Assembly: GCA_965212015.1 (NCBI GenBank)
Contig: OZ243037.1
Span: forward strand, 704,001 to 768,000
DNA: 64,000 nucleotides
Source of the DNA: Cenarchaeum sp.
GTDB lineage: Archaea; Thermoproteota; Nitrososphaeria; Nitrososphaerales; Nitrosopumilaceae
Reading direction: 5' to 3'
A program made the position numbers and the translations under genes. This document shows, one piece after another, positions 12,095 to 61,932 of the stretch. Every line of letters begins with the position of its first letter. Positions within the stretch are counted from its first letter, which is position 1. The notes below the pieces were generated by a model, which searched no databases, was not told the DNA's origin, and was given only the letters and a program-made list of their open reading frames with translations.

Positions 12095-12096
12095 CG

Positions 12097-34655: not shown

Positions 34656-34675
34656 CCAGCGCCGTCTCATAGTTC

Positions 34676-35702: not shown

Positions 35703-35758
35703 GGTTCAATTATGAGCATATCAGTACTATTATATAAGCAGTTATATCCAAATATGGA

Positions 35759-40570: not shown

Positions 40571-40574
40571 AAAG

Positions 40575-40592
40575 AGAGCGCCCTCGGCGGGA
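40575..40592. repeat. att direct repeat (tRNA-distal copy)
   Basis: AGAGCGCCCTCGGCGGGA identical to 60255-60272, covering the tRNA-Asp 3' end. Confidence 0.93.
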
Positions 40593-40804
40593 GTCTGCAG
40601 CTCAAAGTCAACGCCCTGCATCAGACTACCAGAAAAACCGTCCAAATATCGTAATTTTTGCATGATTATACACGGAATACGTGTCTCATAAGGCTTTCCT
40701 TCTTTTTGCAGCTGTAGATCGCAAATTATTTGAGCAGATCTTGACTTTTTGTCAATATACAGATGACAAACACATTAAAACAGATCCTAGGTTATTATAT
40801 AATA

Positions 40805-42001: not shown

Positions 42002-42012
42002 AATCCGATCCT

Positions 42013-42690: not shown

Positions 42691-42701
42691 AAATACATCT
42701 G

Positions 42702-42850
42702 CCTAGTATGAAAAAGTCTTCCAAAACCGACCCAGATTGACGCCTAGGCTCTGCCGGCAATGTCTCCAAAAATTCCTGACCAGTGCCAAAAGTTGGCAAA
42801 GTTGGCAAATCGGGAATGGTGCCCAGAAAGTTGGCAGATCAGGAATCTGA
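42702..42850. repeat. Module A copy 3 plus nonamer cluster
   Basis: Near-identical to 34059-34121, followed by AAGTTGGCA repeats. Confidence 0.92.
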
Positions 42851-42899
42851 GGAGCAAGATATGGCGGTGTTCATAAACCACGAATTGGTCCAAATCATC

Positions 42900-43544: not shown

Positions 43545-43551
43545 CCTATTA

Positions 43552-46104: not shown

Positions 46105-46127
46105 AATGTCTTTTGAGAAAGGCCGGG

Positions 46128-48785
46128 TTAAAATATCTTGGTCTGATCTGGGTCATGTGATACGCCAAGAGAGCCTGTAAACATCCCATCAATCCAGATC
46201 TTCTCCTTACTTGCAGAGTCAGATAGTGACTCGGAGATGGCCTGTGCTACCCGTTTTAGAACCTCACTGTGCTTGTATCCTTTGGATGTCAGGAATTTCT
46301 CTGATTCTTCTGTCATTTGATTCCTCCACAGTATAAGGGCATGATGCAATATGTCTATCAGCTCACCAGAATCTTTCAAATTCTCGGATTCCCTCTCATC
46401 TGGGCCCGCCATATGCACGTATTCCTTGTCTTTTCTGATAAATCCTTTGTCCAACTCTTGTGTTAGATCAATTCCGACACTGTGTGCAAGCTTTAATGCA
46501 TCATCAAATGGTGCCTTGGCATCACCATGTGCCCATCTCCATAGTATGTAAAACCGAGTTAAAGGCGATATCTTGCCAGCAAACTCGCCTCGTATTACCT
46601 TGTCTATTGCATAATTGGTTACCATAGTTCTTGTGTCTTCAAGCAATTTCAAGATGGGTACATCTTTATCCTGGTTGTCTATGACCTTGTCATATTTTCC
46701 GTACACTTCTATGGCAGATCCTATAGATGCAATAAAAAAATCAGCGCCCGCGATCTTCTCATTCCATAACTGATCTAGCTTTTTGTCAAGATATTGTTTT
46801 AGATCCCGCCTTATGTCTTGATAGAATCCTACTGGTTTCCTTTTCCATTTTCTGCACACCATATATATCGATGATAATAATGCAGCTGATTTGTTGGATC
46901 TCAATCTGCTTTTCATTTCCGTATGTATTGGCCATGCGGCTGTAACTACCAAACCAGCTTGAAGCAATGATTCAATTAATGTTTCCCAGCCATCAATGGA
47001 TTTGTGTGCATATACTATCACTGCTATGCCATTTGGTTTTAGAACTCGATGGATCTCTTGGAATGATTTTGCCAATGTTTCTTGAAAGAATTTTTTACCT
47101 GCTTCTATTCCACCAGGCCCGTTAGAGTACGTTACAATCTCATCACTCTTGGGAGTCAAAGGCGTTGAAAACATATCTGAAAATCTACTACCCATTATCC
47201 TCTTAAGCCACACGTAAAAGAAATCCGATAGATGAGAGTATGGAATATTGTCGTAATATGGTGGATCCGTAATCACTGCATCAAAGAACTCATTGGAGAA
47301 CGGCAATGCGGTAGCCGATGTACATTTTACGACTGCCGGTTTGGCGTCTATAATCGACAAATGCTCTAGCACTCCTAGAACCCATTTCTCCATGTTTGGC
47401 CAACCTATGCTAGTAAATGGATTAATTTCCGTATAGTCCCATATCATAGGTAATGCCAGACGACTAAAAATCTGTTCTACATTTTCTCTCGCCACATTAT
47501 ATCGAGCTAAATTAACATTCTTTGCTACAAGACGATCAAATATTATTCCCAGATATGGTAGAGTTTGTACATATTTGGGCGAATTTTCCTTCTCTATCAT
47601 TTTTGCAGCCTCGAGAATTTTTTCTACAAATGTAAGTTGAACGAGTTTTTGTCTATCGTTAAATAAATCTCCCCATGTATTCATATTATATAGTCTAATA
47701 GAAAATGCTCGTTCAGCACCACTACCTTTTCCTTCGGGAGTGGATTCATTTGGTATTAGATCAACACCATATTTTTGTTGGATTCTTCTTTGTTTTTTCT
47801 TTAATGTCTGCCGAGCTTTTACAAACACATCTAGATGATTTTTGGTTGCAATCTTGTATGTTTTACCGGATCTCTCTTTGTTATTGATTATCACAACATT
47901 CATGTTTTCAGTATTTTCATTATTAGTAAATAGTGCCTTAACTCTGTCACCATCCATTCTATGACCGCATATCAAACAACTAGCCTTACCTCTGGATATC
48001 GTTCCCCTTTGTGGATCAAAATCTTGGGGAATTTCATCCTTTCCATATTCTGCAATCTTGAATGAGATCTTTTTGTTCTGAACAGAGGGCAGTAATACAA
48101 TTTTTTTATTCCGAGTTCTAACCAACCAAAATTGCATCATTAGAGGAATAGTTGCACCACATCTAGGATTTTGGCAAGGAATACATCTTGACCACATATA
48201 TCCTACAGGCTCTCCTTCTTTTTCAGTTGGAAAGAATGCTGCAAGATCTTTTTTTGCTTCTTCCAATACCCATTGACTCCATTTTTTTACACATATGATC
48301 AGAGGTGAATCCTCATGTTGTTTATGACCGTGATTTTGCATCCCTCCCAGAAACGGATATTCTATGGCAGCTTTCACGATCAGACTGGCTACAGGGTTAT
48401 AATCTGATGCATATGTCTCACATCCCAATCGTAGAGCTTCTAGTGGTATACTCCCTCCTCCTGCAAACGGGTCAAGCACTCTAGGTGGTGTCTTGTTGTA
48501 ATCCATTATGCGTTTTCTTGCTCTGTCTACCAATTCGGAACGTATTGGATTTGACCACCTTGACAGTTCGGCAATCTCTTGCTTTAGGGTTTCCACTTCC
48601 TTCTTATTCTTTGGAGCAGGAATTAGTGATGCATATATGGTTGCCCGTGACGCTGCAAGAGGACGCCTTGCCCACCACAAATGCATGGTGGATATGTGTC
48701 CATGTCTTACGCTCTTGTCTCTAATTGATTCCTCACTGACCTTCTCAACTGGAAAATGTTCTTCGATGAATCGCCTTTCTGTCAT
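46128..48785 (-). CDS. DUF1156-containing amino-DNA methyltransferase
   Basis: HLWWARRPLA, DPFAGGGSIP, TDPPYYDN, Zn-ribbon insert. Confidence 0.93.
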   Translation of the reverse strand: MTERRFIEEHFPVEKVSEESIRDKSVRHGHISTMHLWWARRPLAASRATIYASLIPAPKNKKEVETLKQEIAELSRWSNPIRSELVDRARKRIMDYNKTPPRVLDPFAGGGSIPLEALRLGCETYASDYNPVASLIVKAAIEYPFLGGMQNHGHKQHEDSPLIICVKKWSQWVLEEAKKDLAAFFPTEKEGEPVGYMWSRCIPCQNPRCGATIPLMMQFWLVRTRNKKIVLLPSVQNKKISFKIAEYGKDEIPQDFDPQRGTISRGKASCLICGHRMDGDRVKALFTNNENTENMNVVIINNKERSGKTYKIATKNHLDVFVKARQTLKKKQRRIQQKYGVDLIPNESTPEGKGSGAERAFSIRLYNMNTWGDLFNDRQKLVQLTFVEKILEAAKMIEKENSPKYVQTLPYLGIIFDRLVAKNVNLARYNVARENVEQIFSRLALPMIWDYTEINPFTSIGWPNMEKWVLGVLEHLSIIDAKPAVVKCTSATALPFSNEFFDAVITDPPYYDNIPYSHLSDFFYVWLKRIMGSRFSDMFSTPLTPKSDEIVTYSNGPGGIEAGKKFFQETLAKSFQEIHRVLKPNGIAVIVYAHKSIDGWETLIESLLQAGLVVTAAWPIHTEMKSRLRSNKSAALLSSIYMVCRKWKRKPVGFYQDIRRDLKQYLDKKLDQLWNEKIAGADFFIASIGSAIEVYGKYDKVIDNQDKDVPILKLLEDTRTMVTNYAIDKVIRGEFAGKISPLTRFYILWRWAHGDAKAPFDDALKLAHSVGIDLTQELDKGFIRKDKEYVHMAGPDERESENLKDSGELIDILHHALILWRNQMTEESEKFLTSKGYKHSEVLKRVAQAISESLSDSASKEKIWIDGMFTGSLGVSHDPDQTKIF

Positions 48786-51700
48786 GTAGATTTTTCCCGT
48801 ATCACTTCAGTGTCAACTATGTAATGTACGTCCTTCTTTGGGTTTATGGTGTGAGCCGGATCTTGGATTACTCTGGGCACCATATCAGTTTCTGGATGAT
48901 CCTTGGTGTTCCAGACCACGTACAGGTAATAGTCTGTTCCCAGATGCAGTGCCTTGAACCATTCATTGCGGGTGAGGGCTACCCTTCCCTCCTTGTGGCG
49001 ACCCTTTACTTCGATGTATCGAATCCCCCCATCACCAGTAGATTTTATGTCATATCCTAGACCTATGGTTTTTGATACGTCAGTAGGTTCCCTGCCATGT
49101 GCCCTCTCAAATTCCATGGCAGCCCTCATGGCAACCATTTCAGATTCCGTATTTTCTCTCATAGCATCAGGGATTACATCGGATGGTATCACTTTGATTA
49201 TTCCAAGAAATGTGGGCGTGCTAATTGTCAAATTTTTCTCTCTTTTTATGAGGTCTTCAAGGCGCTGCTTGCTGTCAATATACTGTCTCTGTCTTTCCTC
49301 CTTGCGCCTTATTGCAATGTCTACATTCTCCCCTTGTCTACGTCTTTCTCGAAGTGACAACAGATCCGCATCATGATCGTGGATAAGTTTCTGCATAGAC
49401 CGGATTCCATATTTTTCCTTGATCTGTGCCTGTCTCTCCCTTTCGTCTAGCAGTTCCTTTTGATAGTCCCTGAGTGTGGCTATTACCCCTGTTTGCACTG
49501 TAGCTTTCTGGCCCACTAGATCTACTGGTTCTGTATGTCCTCCTATCGAATCATCCAGATCCCACAGGATCGTAGTGGGTATGTGCTCTGCCGTGCCAGT
49601 TGCCGCATCCACATAATACGAGAACAGTCGCTTGCCTGCTATGCGTCCCGTACCATCCTGGATGATTCCCTCAAAGAACAACACCGTGCCGTTTAGCTGT
49701 CCAGAATGGTCCACAAACGTGGCTCCTCGTTGTAGGTTGGTGGTAAACTCCTTCGAGATCCACTCCAATACGGCCTCAAAGAGTGGATGTCCGAATGTAA
49801 GAAATTCAGCATCTTGATCCTTTGCACTGACCTCCTTACCGAAGGTTATCTTTCGGTATCCACTCTGTAATGTTCCAAATGATCTCCTGAAGTGATCCTC
49901 TCTTGCAATATTGCGAATCTGGTATGGAATAGAATCTATCGCATACAGTCCTCCCTGTCTAATTCTTATCTTGCCTTCAGCTTTGGCAAATGCTTTGATG
50001 AAAAAATCTGATGTATATTCAGGCATTAGTCTATTCTCTCTGGCCACCTCTTTAATGTCTCCAATCTTACGAAAATCTATGTTGCGGGTTGCTAGCGTGT
50101 CTGTCAAATTTTCCCTGATCTTTCGAATATAATCGTGATCTACAGTAATCTCCATCTCTTTTAGAACTTCTTCTTCTGTCTTTGCACCCATTGCTGCGTC
50201 TGACAATAGCTGCGCAAGATCCCGCCCATGGTATATGTCTCCTATTATATCATACACACGGTCACTACCCATTTTGGATCGTATTTCGGCCAGTTTTTCA
50301 AATAATCTCCTAAAGATCCTTCCCTCTATGGTATCTTGGGCCATCAGGTTGTAGACGAATACTTCGTATTTTTGTCCATATCTGTGGATTCTTCCCATCC
50401 TTTGTTCCAGTCTGTTTGGATTCCATGGTATGTCATAGTTTATCATTAGGTGGCAAAATTGCAAATTTATACCCTCTCCTGCAGCCTCTGTCGCAATCAT
50501 TACTCTGCTTTGATTCTTGAATGTCTTCTCTGCCTCTATCCTTTCGGCCAATTTCATGCCACCATGAATAGTGCTTACCATGTGACCCCAACTGATGACT
50601 CGTTTCTTGAGATACTCTAATGTATCCCTTGATTCCGTAAAGATGAGAATCTTGTCATTTACATGCTTTCTGTCAAGCTCCTCCATGGTTTGTTTGAGTG
50701 CCTTTAATTTTATTTCATGTTCACCATCAATCACGTCCTTGGCAACACCAATTAGCTCCTCTATCGTATGAATCTCTTTTCTGAGTTCATCCCTGTTCTC
50801 TGCTATGCTAAGAGTTTCCCATATTTGTTCGTGCTTCCACCTATCTTCCTCGCTCATATCTTCTACTTCTTCAAAGTCGACTACATTGGGCGCAGTCTGT
50901 TTAGATCTCTCAAAGTCTTTGAGCAGAACTGATAATCTGTCCCTCCTGCGCTGAAGTGATCTCCAAAGTGCAAAGCTACTGGATGCTAGTCGACGTTGAA
51001 GTACTATAACCGCAAACCCTATGTTTCTCTTCTTGTCTGGTGACAAGGCCTTGTTGAATTGGTTCCTGACGTATTCGGTCACACTTCTATACAGATCACG
51101 TTCTGGATTAGACAAACTGTAAGCCGGTGTAGAAACATGTCTGGGCAGGAATAAAGGCTTGCCATCAAAATCTTTCATGTCTTCCTTGATCTGTCTTAAG
51201 AAAAGCGTATTCTCGTCTTTTTTCAATGACTCCTCTAGCATCTCCGTGGTGGCAAAAAATCCAGGCTCCAGCAAATCTAGGAAAAGTCGAAAATTCTCAT
51301 TATCTCCTTTATGAGGTGTAGCTGTAAGGAATAACAAATGCTCCGAGTTAGTCGACAGTATCTCACCCAGTCTATATCTACTGGTTTTGGTAACTTTGTC
51401 GCCGTACCTGTACGCGGCCATCTTGTGAGCCTCATCTACTATAACTAGATCAAATTGAGCCGTCTGCATAGATGAAGCAACTTCTTCTCTCTTGGCAAAA
51501 TCTATCGATGTGATGAGCTGATTTTCCTTGTGCCAGACATTCTCTCCGTACAAAGCGTCTGTAGTTCCTCTGTCGGCGATCACGAACGACTCTTCAAATT
51601 TATCCTTCAACTCACGTCGCCATTGATCCTTGAGGTGTCCTGGTACGACAATCAATATTCTCCTTGCCAAGTGCCTCAGTTTCAGCTCTTTGATTATGAG

Positions 51701-52114
51701 GCCAGCCATAATCGTCTTACCCGCTCCCGGATCATGTGCTAATAGGAATCTAATACGCGGTATCTTTAGAACATGCCCGTATACCGCATCGATCTGATGT
51801 GGAAGTGGATCTATCTTGGACGAGTTCATGGCTAGTAATGGGTCATATAGGAACGCAAAACGGTATCTGATGGTCTCCAGTGCCAGGAATACCTTCCACG
51901 GCTCACTGGAAAAATCACAGTTGATCTTCTTGAGGCTGATATGGGTTAATTCCTCAGCAGCTAGGACAGCATCCACATGTGTGCCAGACTGTGTTAGTGA
52001 ACCGATTATTCTCACCATACCGTCTAATTGATCTACTTTTTTGATTTCTACTGGTTCTAACCACTTGGGGCCCTCAATCAATACACCGGCTTCAAGATCA
52101 GTGACATTCAACAT
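48782..52114 (-). CDS. SNF2-family helicase with C-terminal DUF3883 nuclease domain
   Basis: PLPHQ, DPGAGKT, DEAH, TATPH, QRMGRIHRYGQ; GYDIKS...IEVKG. Confidence 0.93.
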   Translation of the reverse strand: MLNVTDLEAGVLIEGPKWLEPVEIKKVDQLDGMVRIIGSLTQSGTHVDAVLAAEELTHISLKKINCDFSSEPWKVFLALETIRYRFAFLYDPLLAMNSSKIDPLPHQIDAVYGHVLKIPRIRFLLAHDPGAGKTIMAGLIIKELKLRHLARRILIVVPGHLKDQWRRELKDKFEESFVIADRGTTDALYGENVWHKENQLITSIDFAKREEVASSMQTAQFDLVIVDEAHKMAAYRYGDKVTKTSRYRLGEILSTNSEHLLFLTATPHKGDNENFRLFLDLLEPGFFATTEMLEESLKKDENTLFLRQIKEDMKDFDGKPLFLPRHVSTPAYSLSNPERDLYRSVTEYVRNQFNKALSPDKKRNIGFAVIVLQRRLASSSFALWRSLQRRRDRLSVLLKDFERSKQTAPNVVDFEEVEDMSEEDRWKHEQIWETLSIAENRDELRKEIHTIEELIGVAKDVIDGEHEIKLKALKQTMEELDRKHVNDKILIFTESRDTLEYLKKRVISWGHMVSTIHGGMKLAERIEAEKTFKNQSRVMIATEAAGEGINLQFCHLMINYDIPWNPNRLEQRMGRIHRYGQKYEVFVYNLMAQDTIEGRIFRRLFEKLAEIRSKMGSDRVYDIIGDIYHGRDLAQLLSDAAMGAKTEEEVLKEMEITVDHDYIRKIRENLTDTLATRNIDFRKIGDIKEVARENRLMPEYTSDFFIKAFAKAEGKIRIRQGGLYAIDSIPYQIRNIAREDHFRRSFGTLQSGYRKITFGKEVSAKDQDAEFLTFGHPLFEAVLEWISKEFTTNLQRGATFVDHSGQLNGTVLFFEGIIQDGTGRIAGKRLFSYYVDAATGTAEHIPTTILWDLDDSIGGHTEPVDLVGQKATVQTGVIATLRDYQKELLDERERQAQIKEKYGIRSMQKLIHDHDADLLSLRERRRQGENVDIAIRRKEERQRQYIDSKQRLEDLIKREKNLTISTPTFLGIIKVIPSDVIPDAMRENTESEMVAMRAAMEFERAHGREPTDVSKTIGLGYDIKSTGDGGIRYIEVKGRHKEGRVALTRNEWFKALHLGTDYYLYVVWNTKDHPETDMVPRVIQDPAHTINPKKDVHYIVDTEVIREKST

Positions 52115-52221
52115 GGTTAATTCATACCCTCAATGAATAAATCTTGCCCCATAGATGTCGATGGTTTTGAATTATTATGATCCGACTCGTACATAACCTC
52201 CCGATCATGTGATTTATGGCC

Positions 52222-52449
52222 GGCCTTGGTGACCTGTACGGGCCTTGGTGACCTGTACGGGCCTTGGTGACCTGTACGGGCCTTGGTGACCTGTACGGGC
52301 CTTGGTGACCTGTACGGGCCTTGGTGACCTGTACGGGCCTTGGTGACCTGTACGGGCCTTGGTGACCTGTACGGGCCTTGGTGACCTGTACGGGCCTTGG
52401 TGACCTGTACGGGCCTTGGTGACCTGTACGGGCCTTGGTGACCTGTACG
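52222..52449. repeat. Perfect tandem array, 12 x 19 bp
   Basis: Unit GGCCTTGGTGACCTGTACG, 228 bp. Confidence 0.98.
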
Positions 52450-52487
52450 GGCTTGTGCGGGCTTTGTGTATGTGATTTGTATCCTGT

Positions 52488-52583
52488 CCGGGCCGGGACT
52501 CCGGCCCGGGATGGTTCTGGGCAAGAGGGCCGGCTCTGCCGGCCCGATGATGTGATGGGATAGGGCTCCCGTCAGGGAGCCCT
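52488..52583. other. Three consecutive GC-rich perfect hairpins
   Basis: CCGGGCCGG-gact-CCGGCCCGG; GGGCCGGC-tct-GCCGGCCC; AGGGCTCCC-gtca-GGGAGCCCT. Confidence 0.85.
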
Positions 52584-52711
52584 GGAGGAAAAGACGTTGA
52601 GATTACCGAGTCAGAGTTCGTTGTTGGAGACTTGTGAGGTAACTGCGAGCTGGAAAATCTGCCGGCTCAGGCATAACAGCCCGTCCGGGGCACATTCAAT
52701 CATGCCCTAAA

Positions 52712-52876
52712 TGCATATTATGCATGACCCTCATGCATGTTCTGCACCATACAAGTGCATATTCTGCATGGGAAAAAACGCCCATTATGCCAAATATGCA
52801 CCGCCCTCATGCATGTTCTGCATACGGAAAACATGTCTCATGCTAAACATGCACCATCCTGGTGCATTTTATGCAT
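52712..52876. promoter_or_regulatory. Seven phased TGC-N6-TGCA sites (operator/centromere-like)
   Basis: Copies at 52712, 52734, 52756, 52788, 52810, 52841, 52863. Confidence 0.7.
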
Positions 52877-52912
52877 TTTTTTGGCCTTTTATGTAAACCG
52901 ATATTATACAGC

Positions 52913-53239
52913 ATGGAACTTGAAGACATACAGCGAAAGATCCAATTCCGCCAGGGCTCATATATGGTGACCATACCGCTCCAGATAATCCACATGCTGG
53001 GAATCCGCAAGGACCATCATGTGAAGTTTGCCGTCTCCAAAAACAAGATTGTCATAAAGCCAATCGAGTCCAACATTACCAAAAAGGATCTGAGCGAGGC
53101 CGAAAAAGACTCTGCCATACTGGATGAATCCCACACTCCCGGATACCGGGAGGATCTTGCCATAGCGCTGGGACGAAAGACCAAACCTGAAAAAGATAGT
53201 GCAGAGCCCAGCCGCCTTGAAAAGCTCAGGATGAAATGA
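52913..53239 (+). CDS. AbrB/MazE/SpoVT-fold DNA-binding protein with charged tail
   Basis: RKIQ..GSYMVTIP..I...LGI......IVIKP. Confidence 0.85.
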   Translation: MELEDIQRKIQFRQGSYMVTIPLQIIHMLGIRKDHHVKFAVSKNKIVIKPIESNITKKDLSEAEKDSAILDESHTPGYREDLAIALGRKTKPEKDSAEPSRLEKLRMK

Positions 53240-56200
53240 CTACGGTCGATACCTTTTTTCTTTCCTCATCATCAAGGCCGTCGCGGATCTGCCTTATTTT
53301 ATAGCTCTTGGACCACACGTGGCACTCGGAGAATCCAAGCTTTGGCCACTTTGTCATGTTGTATCTTACGTGCTCCTGGTGGCTCTGCACCTCGCTGAGA
53401 GACTCTATCTCTACACTGATTGCGATTTCCTCTGTATAGTTATAGGCTACCAGATCAGTCCGGTCCCTTCCCTTTTTGATGCGCTGGGATGCCATTGCCA
53501 CAAACAGGCCCTCGTCCAGATACGCCTCGATTGCCTTTTTGGAGACCTCCGGTATGTCAGGTGCCGTGCCAATCTGTGCATAGTCAAACTCAAAGTATGC
53601 CTTTTGGGTCTTTTCAGCAAGCCTGTACGGCGAGGTTCGCTCCGCACCGGTCCTCTCTATCCTGCCGTGCTCCTCCATCTCTTTGAGAACGGGCACCACC
53701 TCGTCCCTGTTCTGCACCTTGAGGGCATTTACAATCTGGGCCTGCCTCATCTCCTCCCCGGACAGCAGGCGCATTATATCCCACTCCATCTTGGTCGGAA
53801 ACTCGACTTCAATGTTTTCAATCCACCTGTTTCTCTCCCTGCCGGCCTGCGCTATCGAGTTCTGGCCTATGCTGCCGCCGCCGTACCTTGCCAGCTGTGC
53901 CGCAATATACGCGTCATACTCTGCTTCCCCTACCAGAATCTCCGGCGGCGGACTGAGCCAGAACTGCATGGGCGGGGGCTGCTCCTGGCCCGGCGGCGCC
54001 TTTTCGCGCACGGTCCAGTGAAAGTACTCCTGGCTGGCAAGCTGCTGTAGGAGCTCCCTTTGGAACTGGGGATCCCATATCTGGGCTATCCGGGATGCGT
54101 CCTTGCCGTTGACTTTGCCTATCATCTGCGTGCCAGAGTTTCCTGATATTATTCCAAGCTGCTTGTCGCTTATCTGCTCGGTGGTCTGGTGGGATAACAC
54201 GAGCCCCAGTCCCAGTGATCTTGCCTGCTCGAGCATCAGCTGTAATACCTGGAGGTCCTTTACTATCTGAAACTCGTCTAACGCCAGAACCACCTGTGTT
54301 CGTTCCGACTCGTCCGGAACACGGTTTGCCCTCTCTTGTATGGTAAACCACAGTTTTAGTATGAACGCCTGCATGGCCAGCGGCTGGACGTGCTGCGGCA
54401 TGTTGAGCGGGGATATCCGGACAATGGTCTGCCGTCCAGGCTTTATTAATTCGCCAAAGTCTACCGTTCCCCTACGTACAGAGAACATGCGCTTTAGCAC
54501 GGGGTCGGTAGCAAACTGCTCCACGCGGTTGAGCAGGGGCGTAAAGGCATCCCCCTTTAGGGTGGCAATGCTGGTAAGTGCCTGCTTCATCTCGGGATCC
54601 GGCGTGCCAAACGTCTGTATGATATGCGGCATGGCGCGCACGCCATTATCCTGTAGTCGCAATATGATATCGTGAATGTCTAGGAACGTGGGGGCATCGT
54701 GCCTCATGTAAATATAGAACAGCAAGGCCCGGAATATTCGCTCCATCTGCACATAGCTTGCCGACTGCTGGTACCATTCCTCTATGGTCTTCATGAAATA
54801 CCCGACATATCGAGACACGACCTCCTCGCGCTCCCACGGGGAATGCGCCGGCAATTCCAGTGGGTTTATCGAGAATTTGGTCTTTTGTGGATCCAAAAAG
54901 TGTATGCGCTCGCCTGTCAGGGATTCTGCCTCACACTGCCGGACAAACTTGTGTGAGTCGTCCCCCTTGGGGTCCACGTATATGAACGCGTTTGGAAACT
55001 TGCCGTTGTGGTTCCACATTTCCAGATGCTTGGCAAACAGCCTGATCAGCGAGGTCTTGCCGGAGCCCGATGCCCCGACGGCATAGACGTGCGTGGCAAA
55101 GTCGGTAGGCGATATGACTGCGGCATTTAGGTCCTTTGACCTATCAATCCCGCCCCACAGAGACTTCCAGTCAAAGCCTTTTTCCGGATTCTTGAAAAAC
55201 CCGACACATGCCCCCGCCTTTAGCGACGGCTTTGAGGGGATCATTACTCCGCGCGTGGTATCGATGTTTGGCGTGACAGGCTCTGGCAAATGCACCAAAA
55301 GAGGAATCTCCTCCAGGTTCAGTATGAGAAACGGAAGCGGCTCGCGCTCGCGGTACCCCAGTATCCCCTTGTCAAAATAGCGCCCGATCGCACCGTCCAG
55401 AAACTTGCCGGGGTCCGGAAGCAGCCTGTGCCTGAATATGCCTATTCTGGGCATCTTTTCCCTGCTGTCTGCCACCCGAATCCGCGTCTTTTTGGGCTCA
55501 TCTGCCAGAAAATTTTGATACTTGTATCGGAATTTTGTAAGGTGCTCGTGGCCGGAATGGATGTTCTCGACTGGCAGGGCCTCTATTTCGTCAAAATTGA
55601 GGTCTATATCGCGATCGCTCCTTATCATGCCCCTTATGCTCATGAGCAGCTGGGCAGACTGCATCTTGAGCGTGGCATGCTTTTGAAGGCCGCCGTAATT
55701 GTTGGTAAAGTCGTACCCCATCTCAGGGTGCTCGTGGGGCTTTTTGTCCGGATTCATGATAATCTCGGTATTGCTGAGGTATCTGCCGCGCTTGATCTCG
55801 CGCACCTTTTCATCCAGCCTGCCCACGTGTTTGCGCAGGAACGGGCCGAACGTGTGGTGCTTGAATACGATCTGTATCCAGGCGTGCCTGGAGAGCTGTA
55901 CGGTGTTTGCCACCTGCGTGATCAGCTGGTGCGCGCGGGCCCGGTCAAATACGGCCGAATAATGGCCGTGATATGTCCCCACGTCAAATATCTGGCACTC
56001 GGACTCGTCAAACCACCCCGGCACCGTGTTTGACATGTCAGAGAATACGGAATTTGGATACATGTTTAGAAATGCCTGCTTGTAGGCGGCAAGGTCGTTT
56101 TTTTCCGCTACCAGGACAAACTCCATTTTTTTCTCATCGGCGTCCCACCACACCTCAAAGCTCCGAATACCTGCGCTGGCAAGCCCGCCGGCTGCCAGTA

Positions 56201-56342
56201 CTGCCTTTTTTTCATTCATGTCTATGGGGACGACAATCGAGCAGGCGGCCAGCTCCCCCGGCGTGGCAAGAAAATCCTTGACCTGATCCAGCCTGCCTGA
56301 TGGTTTTTTCTTGTTGGCAAGGCGCCACCGTTTTGAACCCAC
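53226..56342 (-). CDS. VirD4/TraD/HerA-like ATPase with C-terminal wHTH and putative nuclease-fold domain
   Basis: GASGSGKT, VDPKGD, INPL, LALDEFQ, RSLGLGLVLSHQ; tail TDLVA...SVEIE. Confidence 0.85.
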   Translation of the reverse strand: MGSKRWRLANKKKPSGRLDQVKDFLATPGELAACSIVVPIDMNEKKAVLAAGGLASAGIRSFEVWWDADEKKMEFVLVAEKNDLAAYKQAFLNMYPNSVFSDMSNTVPGWFDESECQIFDVGTYHGHYSAVFDRARAHQLITQVANTVQLSRHAWIQIVFKHHTFGPFLRKHVGRLDEKVREIKRGRYLSNTEIIMNPDKKPHEHPEMGYDFTNNYGGLQKHATLKMQSAQLLMSIRGMIRSDRDIDLNFDEIEALPVENIHSGHEHLTKFRYKYQNFLADEPKKTRIRVADSREKMPRIGIFRHRLLPDPGKFLDGAIGRYFDKGILGYREREPLPFLILNLEEIPLLVHLPEPVTPNIDTTRGVMIPSKPSLKAGACVGFFKNPEKGFDWKSLWGGIDRSKDLNAAVISPTDFATHVYAVGASGSGKTSLIRLFAKHLEMWNHNGKFPNAFIYVDPKGDDSHKFVRQCEAESLTGERIHFLDPQKTKFSINPLELPAHSPWEREEVVSRYVGYFMKTIEEWYQQSASYVQMERIFRALLFYIYMRHDAPTFLDIHDIILRLQDNGVRAMPHIIQTFGTPDPEMKQALTSIATLKGDAFTPLLNRVEQFATDPVLKRMFSVRRGTVDFGELIKPGRQTIVRISPLNMPQHVQPLAMQAFILKLWFTIQERANRVPDESERTQVVLALDEFQIVKDLQVLQLMLEQARSLGLGLVLSHQTTEQISDKQLGIISGNSGTQMIGKVNGKDASRIAQIWDPQFQRELLQQLASQEYFHWTVREKAPPGQEQPPPMQFWLSPPPEILVGEAEYDAYIAAQLARYGGGSIGQNSIAQAGRERNRWIENIEVEFPTKMEWDIMRLLSGEEMRQAQIVNALKVQNRDEVVPVLKEMEEHGRIERTGAERTSPYRLAEKTQKAYFEFDYAQIGTAPDIPEVSKKAIEAYLDEGLFVAMASQRIKKGRDRTDLVAYNYTEEIAISVEIESLSEVQSHQEHVRYNMTKWPKLGFSECHVWSKSYKIRQIRDGLDDEERKKVSTVVISS

Positions 56343-56394
56343 ACAGACAAAACCCCGGTTGTATTTAAGGCGGTTTTATCGTGCAAAAAAAAAA

Positions 56395-57207
56395 TTACTC
56401 TACAAGCTTGTAGAGGCCGGCGGCATTGCTCATCACCGGATTGACGGGGACGCTGATCTTGAACTTTTTGAGCCGCGCCTCGAGCTCGTCGCGCACGCCG
56501 GGAATCAACAGTCCCCCGCCGGATAACGCAAGCTCGTACGAGCCATAGTTTGAGGCCACGTCGGTTATCTCCGTTGCCAGGTTTTCTGCAAGCACCTTTG
56601 CGTATTTTTTGCACGTCTCCTTGCGCCGTACCAGAAGGTCCCTGTACAGGTGGGCAAACTTGCCCACTTTACGGGTTATGAACTCCGATGCCCACCTCGA
56701 GCTCTCACCGTCGATCACCTCATTGTCGTCAATGACCACTATCTCTGTGGTCCCCTGTCCGATGGATACGACCATGCCGGTGCTCTTTCCGAGGTCGATG
56801 AGTGTTCCTACTGCCTGGGCGACCACGTCGCACCTTTCCACGTCCGTCGATCTTTTGACGATCTTGGAGATGGATTCGCGGCAGTCAGATGCCTCGTATG
56901 GCAGCCCCACGGCTATCCGGGTCTTTTCCTCCTTTTCTGTGCCGCAGAGCCTGTCAATGGCCTCGCGGATCAGCAGCTCTACCTGTTTTTGATATCTGGG
57001 ATCCGGCCTTCCGCGCACTATGGGCCTGACTATGGAGGTGCCGGTGCTCTCTAGCATCCTTAACGCCCCCTCGCCTACTGCCTCCGATGCCTTGCCGGTC
57101 CAGTCGCCGTTTGTCCTCTTGACGTACAGCGACGGAAACGTGACAGAGCCCCGGTTGGATACGCACTTTACAAAGCCGGTTCCGATATCCAGTCCTAACT
57201 TTAGCAT
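56395..57207 (-). CDS. Actin-fold ATPase (ParM/MamK/MreB-like)
   Basis: GLDIGTGFVK phosphate-1, SIGQGTTE phosphate-2, LSGGG adenosine motif, NPVMSNAAG. Confidence 0.85.
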   Translation of the reverse strand: MLKLGLDIGTGFVKCVSNRGSVTFPSLYVKRTNGDWTGKASEAVGEGALRMLESTGTSIVRPIVRGRPDPRYQKQVELLIREAIDRLCGTEKEEKTRIAVGLPYEASDCRESISKIVKRSTDVERCDVVAQAVGTLIDLGKSTGMVVSIGQGTTEIVVIDDNEVIDGESSRWASEFITRKVGKFAHLYRDLLVRRKETCKKYAKVLAENLATEITDVASNYGSYELALSGGGLLIPGVRDELEARLKKFKISVPVNPVMSNAAGLYKLVE

Positions 57208-57464
57208 TACAATACAAATGTGAGATGGATTTAAGGCCAAAAATTTATGGCAGTTTAGTGTACGAGGTCACCTGTCCTGCCTAAAAGACATCTTGTGATG
57301 CGAAATTCACGCCTAATTACAGTAAGACGTGACCTCACACAGTTTAGTGTATTTAAAGTATAAATATTATAAATACATATGCAGCCTGATAATTCTAGAG
57401 GCTCAGAAAATATACAAAGAATGGAAAAGACAAAATAAGGCGACAAGAATTATTTGATATCATA

Positions 57465-57620
57465 TTGGCATCAGATGAAAGCAATGAAGTTGTTAAGAAG
57501 GATGAACTGGACAAAATCATCGATAGTCTAGTTGCTCAAATGTGTTATGCTCTTAATGAAGATAAGAAACGGATGGATAAGATAGAAGATCGAATCAAAA
57601 ATCTAGAACCCGATGACTAG
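57465..57620 (+). CDS. Possible 51-aa coiled-coil protein
   Basis: TTG-start ORF MASDESNEVVKKDELDKIID...RIKNLEPDD. Confidence 0.4.
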   Translation: MASDESNEVVKKDELDKIIDSLVAQMCYALNEDKKRMDKIEDRIKNLEPDD

Positions 57621-57750
57621 CTCTTGATTACGTAACAGAACCTCAAATCATCCTCCATGTTTAACGATATTATCGGCATAAAGCCAAAAATTGATCCGGT
57701 AGGCTAGATGATTTTACATGCATTATTCCGGATGTTTTTTCAGAGGCCAG

Positions 57751-58626
57751 TCACATGTCGGATGCCGCATCTGCAAGCTTTGTTTTTTCCTCCTCCTCCT
57801 GCCTTATGATCTCGTTGTATTTTTTCATGTCGAGGTGTTTTTTGATGTTGGTTTCAAGTAGTCTTACGAGCTTTTTTGGATCTAGTGCGTCAAGCTCCCA
57901 TGATTGATCCCCGTATATCTCCCTGTACTGTCCGGATCTGGGATCGGACATCTTTGTGGGGTTTGGGGGCGGCTCGTATTTTTTTATCTGATCCATTGTA
58001 AGGGCAATCCTCTGTATGTCGACTGAGCATCTAAAATCGGCCAGCCGCATGTTCATGTCACGCACCATGTCGATTCCGCTCGGATCGTGGTCGCCCAGAT
58101 ATAGAATGTGGCATATCTTGCCGTTCTCTTCGTCCTGTTGGTTTATCCTCTGTGCCAGATCATGCATGGCACTGGCAGACGCGTATCCCTTGTTTGCAAG
58201 CAGCGAGACGTGATACTTGTCGGCTACCGGCTCCAGGATTCCGGCCAGTGCCTCCTTTTCAACTATGACCTCCACATAGTGCGGCTGGTCATGCCATCTG
58301 TGCCTTCGATATGAATAGGTGGCCGCATTGACGAGGTCGGACAGATTCCAAAACTGGCTGGGCATTATCCGCTTTCTTACCCTGTCCACTATGGTGTCCC
58401 AGTCGATCTCGCCGTTCATCCGGCCTATGTTGAGGAGCTTGCTTGTACGCTGATACATATTGTCCACATTTGCCAGTATAAGGCGCGTCACCATCTGATA
58501 GTATACCTGCCTGACGGTGAGGAGATAATTCAGAGCCTCGTATTCCTCTATCACGTGGATCATCTTGTCTAAAAGTATCCTACTAGCTTTGTGGATGTTT
58601 TTTTCTGCATATTGTATTTTGGCCAT
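57751..58626 (-). CDS. Stand-alone Topo VI-A/Spo11-like wHTH-TOPRIM protein
   Basis: TVRQVYY, VEVIVEKEAL, KGY, LGDHDPSG, WELDAL. Confidence 0.85.
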   Translation of the reverse strand: MAKIQYAEKNIHKASRILLDKMIHVIEEYEALNYLLTVRQVYYQMVTRLILANVDNMYQRTSKLLNIGRMNGEIDWDTIVDRVRKRIMPSQFWNLSDLVNAATYSYRRHRWHDQPHYVEVIVEKEALAGILEPVADKYHVSLLANKGYASASAMHDLAQRINQQDEENGKICHILYLGDHDPSGIDMVRDMNMRLADFRCSVDIQRIALTMDQIKKYEPPPNPTKMSDPRSGQYREIYGDQSWELDALDPKKLVRLLETNIKKHLDMKKYNEIIRQEEEEKTKLADAASDM

Positions 58627-58925
58627 GATAAAGTACCATAACATACCGTACTGGGTATATATTATTGTAACGATCAGGGTGGTCGGCAGGCGGATTACGG
58701 GTTTGGGTTCGGCTAGAGTCATGATTGGGTAGGACTATATGTTCAGATAAATCACTCTGCCGGTGCAATTCGGGCCGATACGAAATATGACGGCCTTTTA
58801 AGCTGCCCGTATTTCACAGATATGGAAGAATTCATTCAGGTTCCAAAAAGCATGCTGCTACAGTTACAGCAATTAATCCTGGAATACAGGACCGAGGTTG
58901 AAAGGATGAAAAAGGCATTTACCGG

Positions 58926-60185
58926 CTAGGTCTGCAGGGATTTCTGCTTTAAAAGCTCGCCAAAGATCAGGTCAAGTTTTTTCTCTACCTTTCTGATGCG
59001 CTCAAGGCCCGCGTTCATCTCGTCTATCACGCCCTGCTGCGTCTTTGCATCCTGCGGCAAGAGCGCCCCGTCGAGAATGTATCCGCACTGGGAGCATCTC
59101 TGGTTATCCGGGGTGTTTTGTGTGCTGCACCGGGGACACGTATCAAGCCGTATTATCCCGTTGGAATCATCCTTGATTCTTATCCCGTGCATCTCCAGTA
59201 TCGCCTCGTCAATGTCCTTGCCTGACAGGTGGACGTATTTTTTTGCCATGTTTGAGTTTGGACTCCAGTTGCCATACACGCGAAGCGTCTGGTCTGAGAG
59301 CTTTTTGGCAAGAAGCGTCAGCTGCGTGTGCCGCATCAGATACAGCCACACCTTTTTTGTAATACCGGCATCCGTTGCATACTGCCTGAGGTGACAGCGC
59401 AGATAGCTGTACGATACCCTGGCCACCCCGCTCCGCGATGTTGTAGAGTGCCACAAAAACGCATCCGGATTGTCCCTTTCGGGGTGTTCCCTGAGCCACT
59501 CCAAAAGTGGCTTAAAGGATAGCACGAGTGCCACGCGCTTTGAACCAGTCTTGCCTCCATGTGTGGTAACCAGGACATGGTCGTCCTTGAAATCAATGCC
59601 GCCGACCTTGAACTTTAAGAGCTCACCGGTACGAAACGCACCCTCAAAGAGAACCCAGTACATTGCGCGGTCCCGCTTGTTTGATATCTTTCCCAAGAGG
59701 GCGACCACCTCGTCTGCAGTCAAAAGATCCTCTGGCCTTACTGTAACCTCGTTTTTGTCAAGGTACCGCGACGGCTTTATCCACGACACCTCTTTTGCGT
59801 ATCCGTCCTCCCGAGTTCCAATCTCGCCGGTCTTTACAAAATGGATGAATTTCAACAGGGCAAGGGCGTACGCCTTTTTCGTCTCGCCGCTGTATGCCTC
59901 GTTTGATATTATCTCAGACAGTATGGACTCGCAGTGATGTTTTTTGACGTTTTTTAGGCGTGTTTTTGCAAATTTCTTACCGTACAGCCGCAGTATGAGG
60001 GCCATCCTGTCGCCATAATAGCATATACGGCCGTCCCGGATTCCAGATATCTTTAGGTGCTCCAAAAATCTTACTGCCGCATCCCCCTGCGGTATCGTGC
60101 CAAACTGTCGCTTGAGACGCCTTATCTTTCCGGTATAGTTGTAAATATCGTCCTCGGATCTTGCGGTGTTATGTTTGACGTTCAT
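58926..60185 (-). CDS. Tyrosine integrase with C-terminal Zn ribbon
   Basis: GAFRTGE, GKTG, YLMRH (Y at the HxxR position), GNW..S.M...YVHL, CPRC..CSQC. Confidence 0.93.
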   Translation of the reverse strand: MNVKHNTARSEDDIYNYTGKIRRLKRQFGTIPQGDAAVRFLEHLKISGIRDGRICYYGDRMALILRLYGKKFAKTRLKNVKKHHCESILSEIISNEAYSGETKKAYALALLKFIHFVKTGEIGTREDGYAKEVSWIKPSRYLDKNEVTVRPEDLLTADEVVALLGKISNKRDRAMYWVLFEGAFRTGELLKFKVGGIDFKDDHVLVTTHGGKTGSKRVALVLSFKPLLEWLREHPERDNPDAFLWHSTTSRSGVARVSYSYLRCHLRQYATDAGITKKVWLYLMRHTQLTLLAKKLSDQTLRVYGNWSPNSNMAKKYVHLSGKDIDEAILEMHGIRIKDDSNGIIRLDTCPRCSTQNTPDNQRCSQCGYILDGALLPQDAKTQQGVIDEMNAGLERIRKVEKKLDLIFGELLKQKSLQT

Positions 60186-60258
60186 GGCGGCACACTCCAA
60201 GTATCGGTTAGTATAAAAGCCCGCTTTTTTCTGCAGGGCGTTGACCAAGAAGTTAGAG

Positions 60259-60333
60259 CGCCCTCGGCGGGATTTGAACACGCGTCTCAGCCGTGACAGG
60301 GCCGAATTCTAGACCGGGCTATACTACAAGGGC
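60259..60333 (-). tRNA. tRNA-Asp (GTC), integration site
   Basis: GCCCTTG/CGAGGGC acceptor, CGGCC-CTGTCAC-GGCTG anticodon arm, TTCAAAT loop; no encoded CCA. Confidence 0.95.
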
Positions 60334-60359
60334 GCAACTATACAAGACAAATTTGCCAG

Positions 60360-60370
60360 TTTAAAGCTTT
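60360..60370 (-). promoter_or_regulatory. BRE/TATA of tRNA-Asp
   Basis: AAAGC-TTTAAA on the minus strand about 27-32 nt upstream of the tRNA. Confidence 0.55.
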
Positions 60371-61932
60371 GCTCAACGGGGTGGTGAACGGTTAAATTCG
60401 ATGCCTGCGGAATCAAAATCCCTCCTGGAGCCAACCCGTTCTCACAAGGTTCATGGGTGCTTTATATATGGAAAATTTCCCAAAAATCAGACCGTTTGTA
60501 AAGTGCCATACTGCAAAACCCGCTTTACAAAGTTTGAGGGCGTTCTGATCGCACAGGCCGTCCATCAAAGTCAGGGGCAAAAAAATCCAGGCCCCCGATA
60601 ACAGGCCCCGTCATGATGTAGTCCCGATGGTAAATGATCCCGCGTCTTTTTCCACCGTCCGAATGTCCGGTTTATGTATCCCAATCCAAAATTCTAGATC
60701 AAAAATCACATATTCCAAACGCGCAACAAAACGGCCGATTGCGGATATTGAAAATACGCGCATGCCGTCACGTTTGCACCAGGACCGGAGCTTGCAAACT
60801 TTGGATCATGTCCATACATCCAAGGATTTTCAGACCCGTGTTTTGCCGTCCCGTCGTTTGGCGCGCCTCGCTGACTGCCGTCCCGACAGCGGGCATCAGC
60901 CGTCCATTTGGGTTTTATTCGGATCTCAAATATTCCGAATCAAGTTCGCAGGCTTTGGCTCAGATTGACGGAGGGATTGTTCCGGGTCTTTCCAACACCC
61001 GAGGTTTACCGTTTTGTCATGCGCGTATCGCATGTTTGTCTCACAGTTTTCAGTCCACTCCGAATTTTTGATCTCAGGCTTTGGATTGAGGCCGTGTTAC
61101 AAATCACACATGATGGAACAGTATTCCAGACACGATCTCTTTGGATCGAGGGACGGATTCCATTTAAAACGAGTCCGTGCCGGCAGTGTCCGGGAATCAA
61201 ACGCCGGATCCTGCGGACTGTGTTGCAATCCCGCGTGCAGGGCAGGCCATATCATCATGCCCCGCGCGTAAATGGATAAAATCACGATTCGACACTAGCT
61301 TTTAGCATTGGCGGCCGGATTTCAATTGTGGGTTTTTGCCTATTGCGCACGGGATAACAGGTTGGGTTCAAGAGGGATATTTGGATTACATGTATGGGAC
61401 CTAACCGGTTACCGCACAGGGTCTGCCGGAATTAAATTACACCCGGCGGCTCTGCCGTCGAGGAATTCTAGCGACGCGGGTTTGAAAATTACGCCCATTA
61501 AACTGCAATCGGACAGTCCCCGTACTCGTGCAGCCATTCCAAAAGTGCATGGCGCACAAAGCGGACGTCCCGGCAAAACAGGCAATCCCGCGCACACGAA
61601 ACTATGGCATGATCCGGCCAGTCCCCGGCAAAGGCCGGAATCAGAATTCTCAAACCAGAACAGGGTAAAAGGCGTGCCGTGGCCTCATAACTACATCAGA
61701 CATGCCGCCGGCCCCACAAACTGCAAGGCCTGCCGGCGTCAGGCGCCGCCGGAATCACGGCCGCAGACAGGCCCCGTATTTGGAAGGCACGCCAGATATT
61801 GCAGGCAGGCCGCATGGCCTGTCTGCCGGCCCCCATTCTAGGCGCAACACGCCGGTTTTTGCGGTTTAGGCGCTTTATTGGGCGCCGGCAAAGCTCTAAG
61901 TTATTATACTAATGCACAGGTGTAATGTAGAG

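Follow-up and report, generated by a model that had tools for sequence, protein, structure and literature searches.

A candidate actin-based segregation cassette with an AbrB-fold adaptor on an integrated element of the archaeon Cenarchaeum

The stretch of Cenarchaeum sp. DNA analysed here, the window (64,000 nucleotides (nt); assembly GCA_965212015.1, contig OZ243037.1, positions 704,001 to 768,000, or G000:C1:704001-768000 in our numbering, G000 being the genome that holds it), carries a 19.7-kb integrated element at 40575-60272, in a host genome of 1.76 Mb on a single contig. The backbone beside the integrase of this element encodes, all on the minus strand, a Mini-A-type protein, a 270-amino acid (aa) actin-like protein and a 1038-aa TraG/VirD4-type ATPase; the gene for a small AbrB-fold protein converges on these from the plus strand and is preceded by an array of short repeats (iterons). 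We assign a probability of about 0.5 to the proposal that the actin, the AbrB protein and the iterons form a type II (ParMRC-like) segregation or DNA-positioning cassette of the excised circular element, lying beside an inherited TraG-like translocase.

The ~270-aa actin-fold gene directly upstream of a 1038-aa VirD4/HerA-like ATPase gene, as described in a first-pass annotation made from the sequence alone, is present, and the family matches of both hold. The actin open reading frame (ORF) spans 56395-57240, and the start used by homologues, the ATG at 57207, yields a protein of 270 aa. The protein passes the Pfam cut-offs for MreB_Mbl (2.5e-14; 53.3 bits, cut-off 27) and ALP_N (1.3e-6; 29.1 bits, cut-off 26.3), matches PHROG 691, annotated 'partition protein', at 1.3e-18, and its nearest Atlas clusters bear ALP_N. 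An AlphaFold2 (AF2) model with a predicted local distance difference test score (pLDDT) of 94.2 matches MreB and actin in Foldseek with query-normalised TM-scores (TMq) of 0.63-0.77; residues 171-225 are modelled as helices only. The phosphate-1 (D7, G9, T10), phosphate-2 (G150, G152, T153, E155) and adenosine (S229, G230, G231, G232) motifs are invariant in 36 sequences. The actin fold thus appears real and its nucleotide-binding motifs intact, and the protein looks, by prediction, to be active. By NCBIfam it is not a member of the ParM, MreB, EutJ or salactin families; a few distant relatives have already been named 'ParM/StbA family protein' or 'rod shape-determining protein' by NCBI's pipeline. 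No relative is encoded in the viral contigs behind 51 pattern matches in IMG/VR, and searches of PLSDB plasmids and INPHARED phages gave no match at E <= 1e-3.

The AbrB gene (ORF 52862-53239, likely ATG at 52913, giving 108 aa) overlaps the convergent ATPase gene by 14 nt (53226-53239), so that the convergent arrangement of the first-pass annotation stands. As a single sequence the protein scores below the Pfam cut-off for MazE_antitoxin/AbrB (2.3e-4; 21.5 bits, cut-off 24.7), and a profile of 18 homologues matches the swapped-hairpin domains of solved chains, with 7d2n at 9.5e-5 followed by MazE, PemI and AbrB chains. The C terminus, ...PSRLEKLRMK, follows a charged linker. The charged tail ending in SRLEKLRMK that had been pointed out in this protein is conserved: among the 18 homologues, whose DNA-binding domains fall to 26-30% identity and whose linkers comprise ~35-60 charged or Gly/Ser-rich residues, the last nine residues are kept as S[RK][LM]EKL[RK][MIL][KR]. 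The protein therefore has, as judged from these alignments, an adaptor-like design, with a DNA-binding domain, a variable linker and a conserved C-terminal peptide.

The co-fold of tail and actin proposed in the first-pass annotation was carried out in three runs, with the 270-aa actin, AbrB residues 66-108 and controls. The median score was 0.34 (runs 0.21, 0.77 and 0.34) and the best control scored 0.09; the runs share at least 77% of contacts, with partner pLDDT of at least 43. Of 80 solved complexes, 58 reach the mark applied, as do 2 of 110 mismatched pairs; those that do so at or below a score of 0.60 are 7 of the 80 and both of the mismatches. Such modelling lends weak support to a contact between the AbrB tail and the actin.

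Upstream of the AbrB gene, the seven TGC-N6-TGCA sites previously noted are confirmed, and one overlapping site brings the plus-strand matches at 52703-52875 to eight. The window holds 38 matches on both strands, 14 of them within these 173 bp; shuffles expect 13.8 +/- 3.7 per window, and none of 100 shuffles reaches 38. The seven in-register iterons are spaced at 22, 22, 32, 22, 31 and 22 bp, which implies that the sites are phased and lie on approximately the same face of the helix. The last iteron ends 8-20 bp ahead of a TATA-like GGCCTTTTATG box preceding the AbrB gene; the same box precedes the AbrB gene of a second copy of the module in G000 (below), and is presumably the AbrB promoter.

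The survey of iterons in relatives covered the 300 nt before the AbrB start, with 7-mer counts compared with shuffles, a threshold of six copies and an added sliding scan; positions were taken from AbrB starts, because frames defined from stop to stop mislocate several promoters, and counts made by the latter are not relied on. A 7-mer repeated at least six times (6-24 copies; shuffle maxima 4-8) is present in 14/21 AbrB upstream regions, usually with a period of 22 or 33 bp, and the sliding scan found arrays beside seven further loci. The repeated word is not the same at all loci. The window shares ATGCAT with its four nearest relatives, the second copy has CGCTTTC (its iterons being of the CGCTTTCG type), and other loci have CTAGCTA, AGCGCAC, AGCGCGC (24 copies), ATCCCCG, CTTTACA (12 copies at exactly 22 bp) or GCATTTA. 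These words change together with the AbrB domain from locus to locus.

We surveyed 301 genomes sampled from the family Nitrosopumilaceae, to which the relatives of G000 belong. The actin family is present in 33 of these (31/299 without the unpublished genomes G077 and G257), distributed over 9 of 27 genera, a single genome having as many as seven matches, and behaves like a mobile-element gene. The ATPase is likewise present in 33/301 genomes, and the two occur together in only 10. G000 itself has a second copy of the module at C1:318-324 kb, with the same integrase-actin-ATPase-AbrB layout and 64%, 71% and 30% identity for actin, ATPase and AbrB, respectively; its AbrB tail is PSRLEKLRIK, and Mini-A is absent there.

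Seventy-two loci from species-representative genomes were compared, of which a close clade, defined by actin identity of at least 53%, comprises 34 loci with full-length actin, including the window and the second copy. The ATPase gene lies downstream of the actin gene on the same strand in 28/34 of these (25 complete, three cut by a contig end); four have no ATPase gene, with at least ~7 kb downstream examined, and two are too short to tell. All but one of the 25 loci with a complete ATPase gene have an AbrB homologue that runs convergently into the 3' end of that gene. The identities of actin, ATPase and AbrB to those of the window fall together across loci, as expected for a co-inherited module. 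Genes are inserted between actin and ATPase in some relatives, a GIY-YIG nuclease in L048 (8858-9433, minus strand) and three small ORFs in L050 (9031-10570), which indicates that tight operon coupling of the two is not universal.

The variants of this layout bear on which parts belong together. Loci L045, L055 and L063 lack the ATPase and have an AbrB gene, a divergent Mini-A and actin; their AbrB tails, MLDGLRM, VMEGFRM and KFEGLRM, conform to [ML][LMF][DE]G[LF]RM, and in L045 and L063, and only there, iteron arrays stand directly upstream of the actin gene. With L040 and L058 included, an AbrB homologue lies within 2 kb of actin in 5/5 ATPase-less loci, and a search of the four genomes involved, one of them ~2.0 Mb in size, gave no ATPase. 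The pairing of AbrB with the actin thus survives loss of the ATPase. The converse variant, L105-L109, lacks actin; here an ATPase of ~50% identity lies behind TFIIB-like, prepilin-peptidase-like and other conserved genes, a convergent AbrB-like gene is present in 5/5, and iteron arrays in 0/5. In a more remote clade of actins (33-40% identity; Nitrosotalea, Nitrosotenuis and others), the actin gene is preceded by TFIIB-like and prepilin-peptidase-like genes and has an ArdC-like gene nearby; there is no ATPase within 8 kb and, L097 excepted, no array at the six-copy threshold. The gene that comes after actin, in the same orientation, encodes in 16 of the 28 such loci examined an unrelated basic, helical protein of ~95 aa, the C-terminal tail of which is conserved (...SLSKFENW, ...SILDMNKMA). 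Two of them, L085 (9410-9592) and L096 (9383-9607), have a 60-75-aa AbrB/MazE-domain gene after actin and its tailed partner (Pfam 2.4e-9 in L085). Hence the co-occurrence looked for in other genomes is real for most of the close clade, and the view of the three genes as one obligate machine does not survive: ATPase and AbrB occur without actin in the backbones of integrative-conjugative element (ICE) type, and actin and AbrB in four genomes that gave no match to the ATPase.

The ATPase is a known kind of protein rather than a new partner devised for the actin. Sixty records, from conjugative plasmids of Sulfolobus (pARN4 and pNOB8 among them), from haloarchaeal plasmids and from one Thermococcus plasmid, align with its residues 349-1031, a span that takes in the winged helix and the alpha/beta end domain (22-26% identity, E down to 3e-50). 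The pARN4 homologue, the one whose length was checked, has 1025 aa; we take this homologue to be the 'TraG-like' ORF of those plasmids. The alignment identifies the window's ATPase as an archaeal conjugative-plasmid protein that lacks a membrane anchor and carries an additional soluble domain at its N terminus. It starts with GTG, its N terminus agreeing with the family consensus, and comprises a soluble N-terminal domain (1-400), a P-loop core with a helical insertion, a winged helix (~850-908) and an alpha/beta C-terminal domain (~930-1035). TrwB_AAD_bind is matched at 2.6e-5 (23.7 bits, cut-off 20.5), a TraG-D_C signature is present, and the Walker A and B residues G423, G428, K429, T430, D689 and E690 are invariant in 36 ATPase sequences. 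The AF2 model (pLDDT 84.8) places a helical bundle (502-620) between the Walker motifs, as in coupling proteins; its Foldseek matches are TrwK/VirB4 (4e-13), DndH-C, TrwB (target-normalised TM-score, TMt, 0.52-0.56) and HerA. Residues 1-400 are modelled as soluble alpha/beta, and no N-terminal membrane anchor is discernible by a 19-residue hydrophobic window. Pfam gave no match for residues 1-400 or 915-1038, and a PDB sequence search with the C-terminal 239 residues gave chance-level matches only. The end domain may be a PD-(D/E)xK-like nuclease, a weak lead based on the Atlas leads for it (PD-(D/E)xK families, 0.82-0.84) and on the invariant D963, E978 and E980. A small convergent gene beside the pARN4 homologue was considered as a possible AbrB counterpart; it is not AbrB-like, and the convergent layout is thus not demonstrably ancient.

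The element is inserted in tRNA-Asp and is bounded by two copies of an 18-nt att repeat that has only these two sites in the 1.76-Mb genome. The integrase gene, with a probable start at an ATG near 60185, abuts attR, and an Rfam scan of 39000-61000 gave a single match, the tRNA. The element thus has the attributes used to recognise thaumarchaeal integrated elements (Krupovic et al. 2019), namely a tyrosine integrase, att direct repeats at a tRNA gene and deviant composition, its cargo having a GC content of 0.37-0.46 compared with ~0.55 in the host flanks. In agreement with the first-pass annotation, no VirB6, pilin or other transmembrane channel gene lies between the att sites: VirB4, VirB6 and pilin genes are absent by Pfam and a hydrophobicity scan, and among ORFs of at least 50 aa at 40000-61000 only two short, probably spurious ones have a hydrophobic 19-residue window. 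The ATPase is, therefore, not encoded with a mating channel within the att sites. Nor did the ORF list and Pfam reveal, between them, an MCM, primase-polymerase, rolling-circle Rep or other recognisable replication protein. A tblastn search of G000 for a helper ICE with six L106 proteins (five backbone proteins and the AbrB-like c9), a single query set of limited sensitivity, found none.

Evidence on excision comes from contigs of four public sequencing runs (X1-X4) compared with 40450-60400. X3 and X4 contain a junction contig that reads through 60148-60258 and continues at 40580-40756, 19679 positions back, with sides of 111 letters in X3 and 30 in X4; X1 and X2, which match the window near-exactly, contain the integrated form alone. 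The joint is that expected of an excised circle, and the element probably excises. As these data are assembled contigs, abundance cannot be derived from them. Taken as a whole, the element is best explained as a reduced form related to the integrative-conjugative elements of thaumarchaea, with the actin, ATPase and AbrB genes as its own conserved core.

The proposed mechanism is as follows. AbrB dimers or tetramers would coat the 7-8 phased iterons, by which they would also repress their own promoter, abutting the last iteron; the flexible linker would offer the C-terminal peptide to the actin, and ATP-dependent actin filaments would move or hold copies of the element. The 1038-aa ATPase would be an archaeal TraG/VirD4-type double-stranded DNA (dsDNA) translocase inherited, together with AbrB, from a conjugative backbone, and would form a separable unit co-transcribed with the actin; in an element lacking a type IV secretion system (T4SS) its candidate roles are mobilisation by a helper element or DNA pumping. 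We favour a ParMRC-like cassette because of the adaptor design of AbrB, the locus-specific iterons, the tracking of arrays with actin, the small tailed protein that accompanies actin in the distant clade, and the weak co-fold. As in type II systems, a small adaptor gene, predicted to bind DNA, accompanies actin (24/25 and 5/5 loci), and repeated phased sites adjoin the adaptor or actin genes. Of the original suggestion of a ParMRC analogue with an AbrB adaptor, the adaptor itself is thus strengthened, by its design in 18 homologues and by iteron co-variation, while its contact with the actin has gained weak support from the co-fold.

A number of observations weigh against the ParMRC-like assignment, and for this reason we hold it at roughly even odds, alongside four rivals. 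The convergent AbrB-ATPase pair is more widely conserved than the module, being present without actin in ICE-type backbones, and the AbrB-like proteins of these actin-less loci have related tails (NPLKDLDL, NPLDEVF, NPLDRIDNL), which means that the first partner of the tail need not be actin and may be the ATPase or a host protein. The order parC-parM-parR is not found, AbrB being convergent and separated from actin by a 3.1-kb gene, and the actin falls outside the ParM family proper (NCBIfam ParM equivalog PRK13917, 19.3 bits, cut-off 417); its polymerisation is putative, and one of the three runs of the weak co-fold scored 0.21. Some co-resident copies, each set within one metagenome-assembled genome, share iteron words (L034/L036; L038/L059/L072), which argues against a centromere, since true centromeres of co-resident replicons are expected to differ, and an array abutting the AbrB promoter would also be explained by plain autoregulation. 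The link between iterons and actin has one exception, L114 (G109:C1:1245000-1263000), where an AbrB-like gene with an array of 12 GGATCCC copies (together at ~11487-12358) lies beside a fragmented ATPase, in a genome, G109, that has no actin match; as the clades compared are few, related and not independent, this correlation does not amount to a statistical test. The excision junction is known from contigs of two runs of one study, X3 and X4, and from a related strain holding ~45% of the sampled words, and a head-to-tail tandem duplication gives an identical joint.

A somewhat unlikely alternative is that AbrB on the iterons marks the DNA for transfer, in the manner of an oriT or clt, and uses its C-terminal peptide to pass this DNA on to the TraG-like ATPase, the actin being an accessory that positions DNA or ATPase. 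This would resemble F-like plasmids, in which TraM near oriT contacts the coupling protein TraD. It draws on the overlapping convergent AbrB-ATPase pair, kept at ATPase identities from 50% to 81% with or without actin, on the homology of ATPase residues 349-1031 to the ~1025-aa Sulfolobus plasmid proteins, on the winged helix and the possibly nuclease-like C-terminal domain, and on the position of ATPase relatives behind TFIIB-like and prepilin-peptidase-like genes, as in the ICEs described in PMC6563490. However, arrays are missing from the ICE-type loci that have ATPase and AbrB but lack actin (0/5), an AbrB tail of the same type is retained in the four genomes that gave no match to the ATPase, and the element has no VirB4, VirB6 or pilin gene, with no helper backbone found in G000 using the L106 queries. 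Were AbrB instead simply an autorepressor or a switch for excision or transfer, the repeats would be operators, the tail would serve oligomerisation or turnover, and the actin would act independently, for instance in AlpC-like positioning for replication after excision; regulation is the typical role of AbrB/SpoVT/MazE proteins, 8-20 bp separate the last iteron from the TATA-like box, actin and AbrB are in different transcription units, and AlpC of prophage CGP3 is described as aiding replication rather than classical partition (PMC5539076). We regard this as unlikely, because 7-24 phased sites over 170-260 bp far exceed the usual need of an operator, a disordered linker with a short peptide conserved across DNA-binding domains of 26-30% identity is the mark of a docking motif, and arrays are missing in the ICE clade, where actin is missing.

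It is decidedly unlikely that all components form a single machine, in which the tail of iteron-bound AbrB would bind a minimal actin filament as well as a soluble translocase of TraG type, such that positioning is coupled to DNA pumping; DNA of the element would then be pumped through the Cdv division site to a daughter cell, or else to a recipient, and such an actin-plus-translocase device for segregation or transfer would have no bacterial or eukaryotic counterpart. That the iterons are a replication origin, with AbrB as an initiator recruiting the large ATPase and/or Mini-A to open or process DNA, we consider improbable. Iteron arrays that differ in sequence between related elements are typical of iteron-type origins, which the locus-specific words fit, there is no MCM, primase-polymerase or rolling-circle Rep gene between the att sites, and Mini-A adjoins actin in 8/34 close-clade loci; yet ATPases of the FtsK/HerA/VirD4 type are dsDNA translocases and not known replicative helicases, the second G000 copy lacks Mini-A, and ICE-clade relatives have ATPase and AbrB without iterons. 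We give very little credence to a defence or toxin-antitoxin-like unit, in which a MazE-like antitoxin tail would restrain a HerA-type ATPase effector as in HerA-based defence. The ATPase does match PADLOC mad8 (3.3e-14) and, in Foldseek, HerA-Sir2 and HerA-DUF4297 structures, the best family matches of AbrB are of MazE type, and the cargo of the element consists of defence genes, but the PADLOC and HerA matches are confined to the generic P-loop core, no Sir2, nuclease or MazF effector gene adjoins, and the genes lie beside the integrase in the conserved backbone, outside the variable cargo.

The features of the element are collected in Table 1. The Mini-A-type protein has no Pfam match; it has a Toprim-like ExxA...GDHDPSG motif, read by eye. 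Its phage homologues (84 records; 41-42% identity) are annotated as 'putative DNA topoisomerase' or as hypothetical and come from phages of Pseudomonas, Salmonella and Listeria, among others, a broad spread for a gene of a thaumarchaeal element. Mini-A has been described as a stand-alone Topo VI-A-like protein of mobile elements (PMC7671362), to which we tentatively liken the protein by its features. The cargo (40763-52114) includes a complete Hma defence system (helicase, methylase and ATPase). In X3 and X4 the summed contig depth of the Hma genes is several-fold below that of the backbone genes, a hint that related elements share the backbone and not the Hma cargo. Just outside attL, an ORF at 39107-39661 resembles, as judged by eye, the C-terminal half of the STAND-type ATPase of the element; this, with a low-GC stretch at 34000-37000, suggests remnants of an earlier insertion at the same site.

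Table 1. Features of the integrated element and its surroundings, with positions in the window
Feature	Position	Strand	Basis
attL, left copy of the 18-nt att core	40575-40592		Exact repeat of 60255-60272; at the joint in runs X3 and X4
STAND-type ATPase, cargo	40763-42001	+	Pfam
HEPN protein, cargo	42900-43643	-	Pfam
HmaC, Hma defence cargo	43552-46104	-	PADLOC 5.3e-96
HmaB, Hma defence cargo	46128-48785	-	PADLOC 1.8e-111
HmaA, Hma defence cargo	48782-52114	-	PADLOC 3.5e-208
Dispersed host-genome repeat: 19-bp perfect tandem x12.2, then GC-rich hairpins	52219-52662		Tandem repeat scan; copies elsewhere in G000
Iteron array, 8 TGC-N6-TGCA sites	52703-52875	+	Site counts, spacing, sequence
AbrB/SpoVT/MazE-fold protein, predicted DNA-binding, 108 aa; charged linker, C-terminal SRLEKLRMK	52913-53239	+	Family hits, 18-homologue alignment
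TraG/VirD4-type (FtsK-HerA superfamily) ATPase, 1038 aa	53226-56342	-	Pfam, NCBIfam, AF2, Foldseek, archaeal plasmid homology
Compact actin-like ATPase, 270 aa	56395-57207	-	Pfam, PHROG, invariant motifs, AF2 model and Foldseek, Atlas clusters
Topo VI-A-like stand-alone protein ('Mini-A' type), 323 aa	57751-58722	-	phrog_6247 'DNA topoisomerase' 8e-88
Tyrosine integrase, C-terminal zinc ribbon	58926-60281	-	Phage_integrase 1.9e-12 and Zn_Ribbon_1 (Pfam); XerA-like 1.4e-16
attR core (60255-60272), overlapping the 3' end of tRNA-Asp (60258-60333)	60255-60333	-	Exact repeat and tRNA call

Other repeats in the region do not belong to the module. The 19-bp tandem and GC-rich hairpins, which fell within the span of the first-pass annotation, were considered as a cis element of the module and rejected, as copies occur elsewhere in G000 (C1 near 324.6k, 647.8-650.3k, 1134.2k and 1162.6-1164.0k), also at places without the module, and the loci of other genomes lack them; this is a dispersed repeat of G000. 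The block is near-identical beside both G000 actin modules, though the adjoining proteins are 30-71% identical. Perfect tandem arrays are also present just outside attL (48 bp x16, 39660-40428) and inside the element (112 bp x5, 42016-42585), with related units of 45-83 nt at 34417-34630 and 40455-40577. The low-GC spacer between Mini-A and actin (57252-57776) contains a dispersed repeat of ~80 nt (57260-57340), with ten more copies in G000; in the related element of X3 and X4, 71 other letters replace 57253-57775. A 63-aa ORF with a hydrophobic stretch (57255-57446) lies in this replaced section and looks spurious.

In its working the module would come closest to ParMRC or AlfAB-parN, and its place on an integrated element also brings it near to AlpAC-alpS of CGP3. 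ParR, a ribbon-helix-helix protein, docks on ParM via its C terminus. The module shares with ParMRC of plasmid R1 and AlfA/AlfB/parN of pLS32 an actin-fold NTPase, a small putative DNA-binding adaptor, a repeat array at the adaptor promoter and a C-terminal peptide after a flexible linker. It differs in its archaeal host, its carriage on an integrative element, the swapped-hairpin AbrB fold of its adaptor in place of ribbon-helix-helix, and the convergent orientation of the adaptor gene, with a 3.1-kb ATPase gene between adaptor and actin. Among the ParM and Alp family cut-offs, its actin passes those of ALP_N and MreB_Mbl and no other; at 270 aa it may be compared with AlfA (275 aa), which was called the smallest actin-like protein in 2017 (bioRxiv 10.1101/190744). 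The AlpC/AlpA/alpS system of the Corynebacterium prophage CGP3 is described as comprising an actin-like protein, a non-homologous DNA-binding adaptor and repeated sites in the promoter region, and as acting on circular excised DNA (PMC5539076). The module resembles it in having actin and adaptor on an integrated element and repeated promoter sites, and would likewise act on excised DNA; CGP3 is, however, a bacterial prophage, its adaptor and actin genes share a transcript, and the operon lacks a translocase gene.

The ATPase is like those of the archaeal plasmids (pARN4, pNOB8) and the VirD4/TraG proteins of thaumarchaeal ICEs in its homology over 349-1031 and its TrwB_AAD_bind and TraG-D_C signatures, and the ICE backbones presented by Krupovic et al. 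(PMC6563490) match the TFIIB, ParB-like and prepilin-peptidase backbones of its relatives of 50% identity; it is distinguished from them by the absence of VirB4, VirB6 and pilin genes between the att sites, by the lack of a membrane anchor and by lying in an operon with actin. The archaeal segregation systems SegAB, AspA-ParB-ParA of pNOB8 and HpaAB are described as using Walker-type ParA ATPases (PMC9178275, PMC11381335, PMC13722703). They too combine a DNA-binding adaptor and an NTPase on repeated sites of an archaeal replicon, whereas the NTPase of the module has the actin fold. The words actin, ParM, MreB and AbrB are absent from the main text of PMC6563490, the supplementary annotations of which may list such genes under other names. 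A literature search found no actin-based partition cassette on an archaeal element, no thaumarchaeal element-borne actin and no AbrB-fold centromere-binding adaptor, an absence that is not proof.

Actin-driven (type II) partition is known, to our knowledge, from bacterial plasmids and one prophage. If our proposal is correct, it would extend to archaea, with an AbrB-fold adaptor, one of the smallest actin folds (270 aa) and carriage on integrative elements. As a compact three-part system of ~1.5 kb plus the actin gene, the cassette may be useful for studying how actin/adaptor pairs evolve by exchange of the DNA-binding fold with retention of the tail. Its carriers are ecologically dominant ammonia oxidisers, often with several copies per genome. 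The integrase, Mini-A, actin, TraG-like ATPase and AbrB genes would provide a conserved backbone for a class of thaumarchaeal elements for which the 2019 survey gave the genes of maintenance and transfer as unknown.

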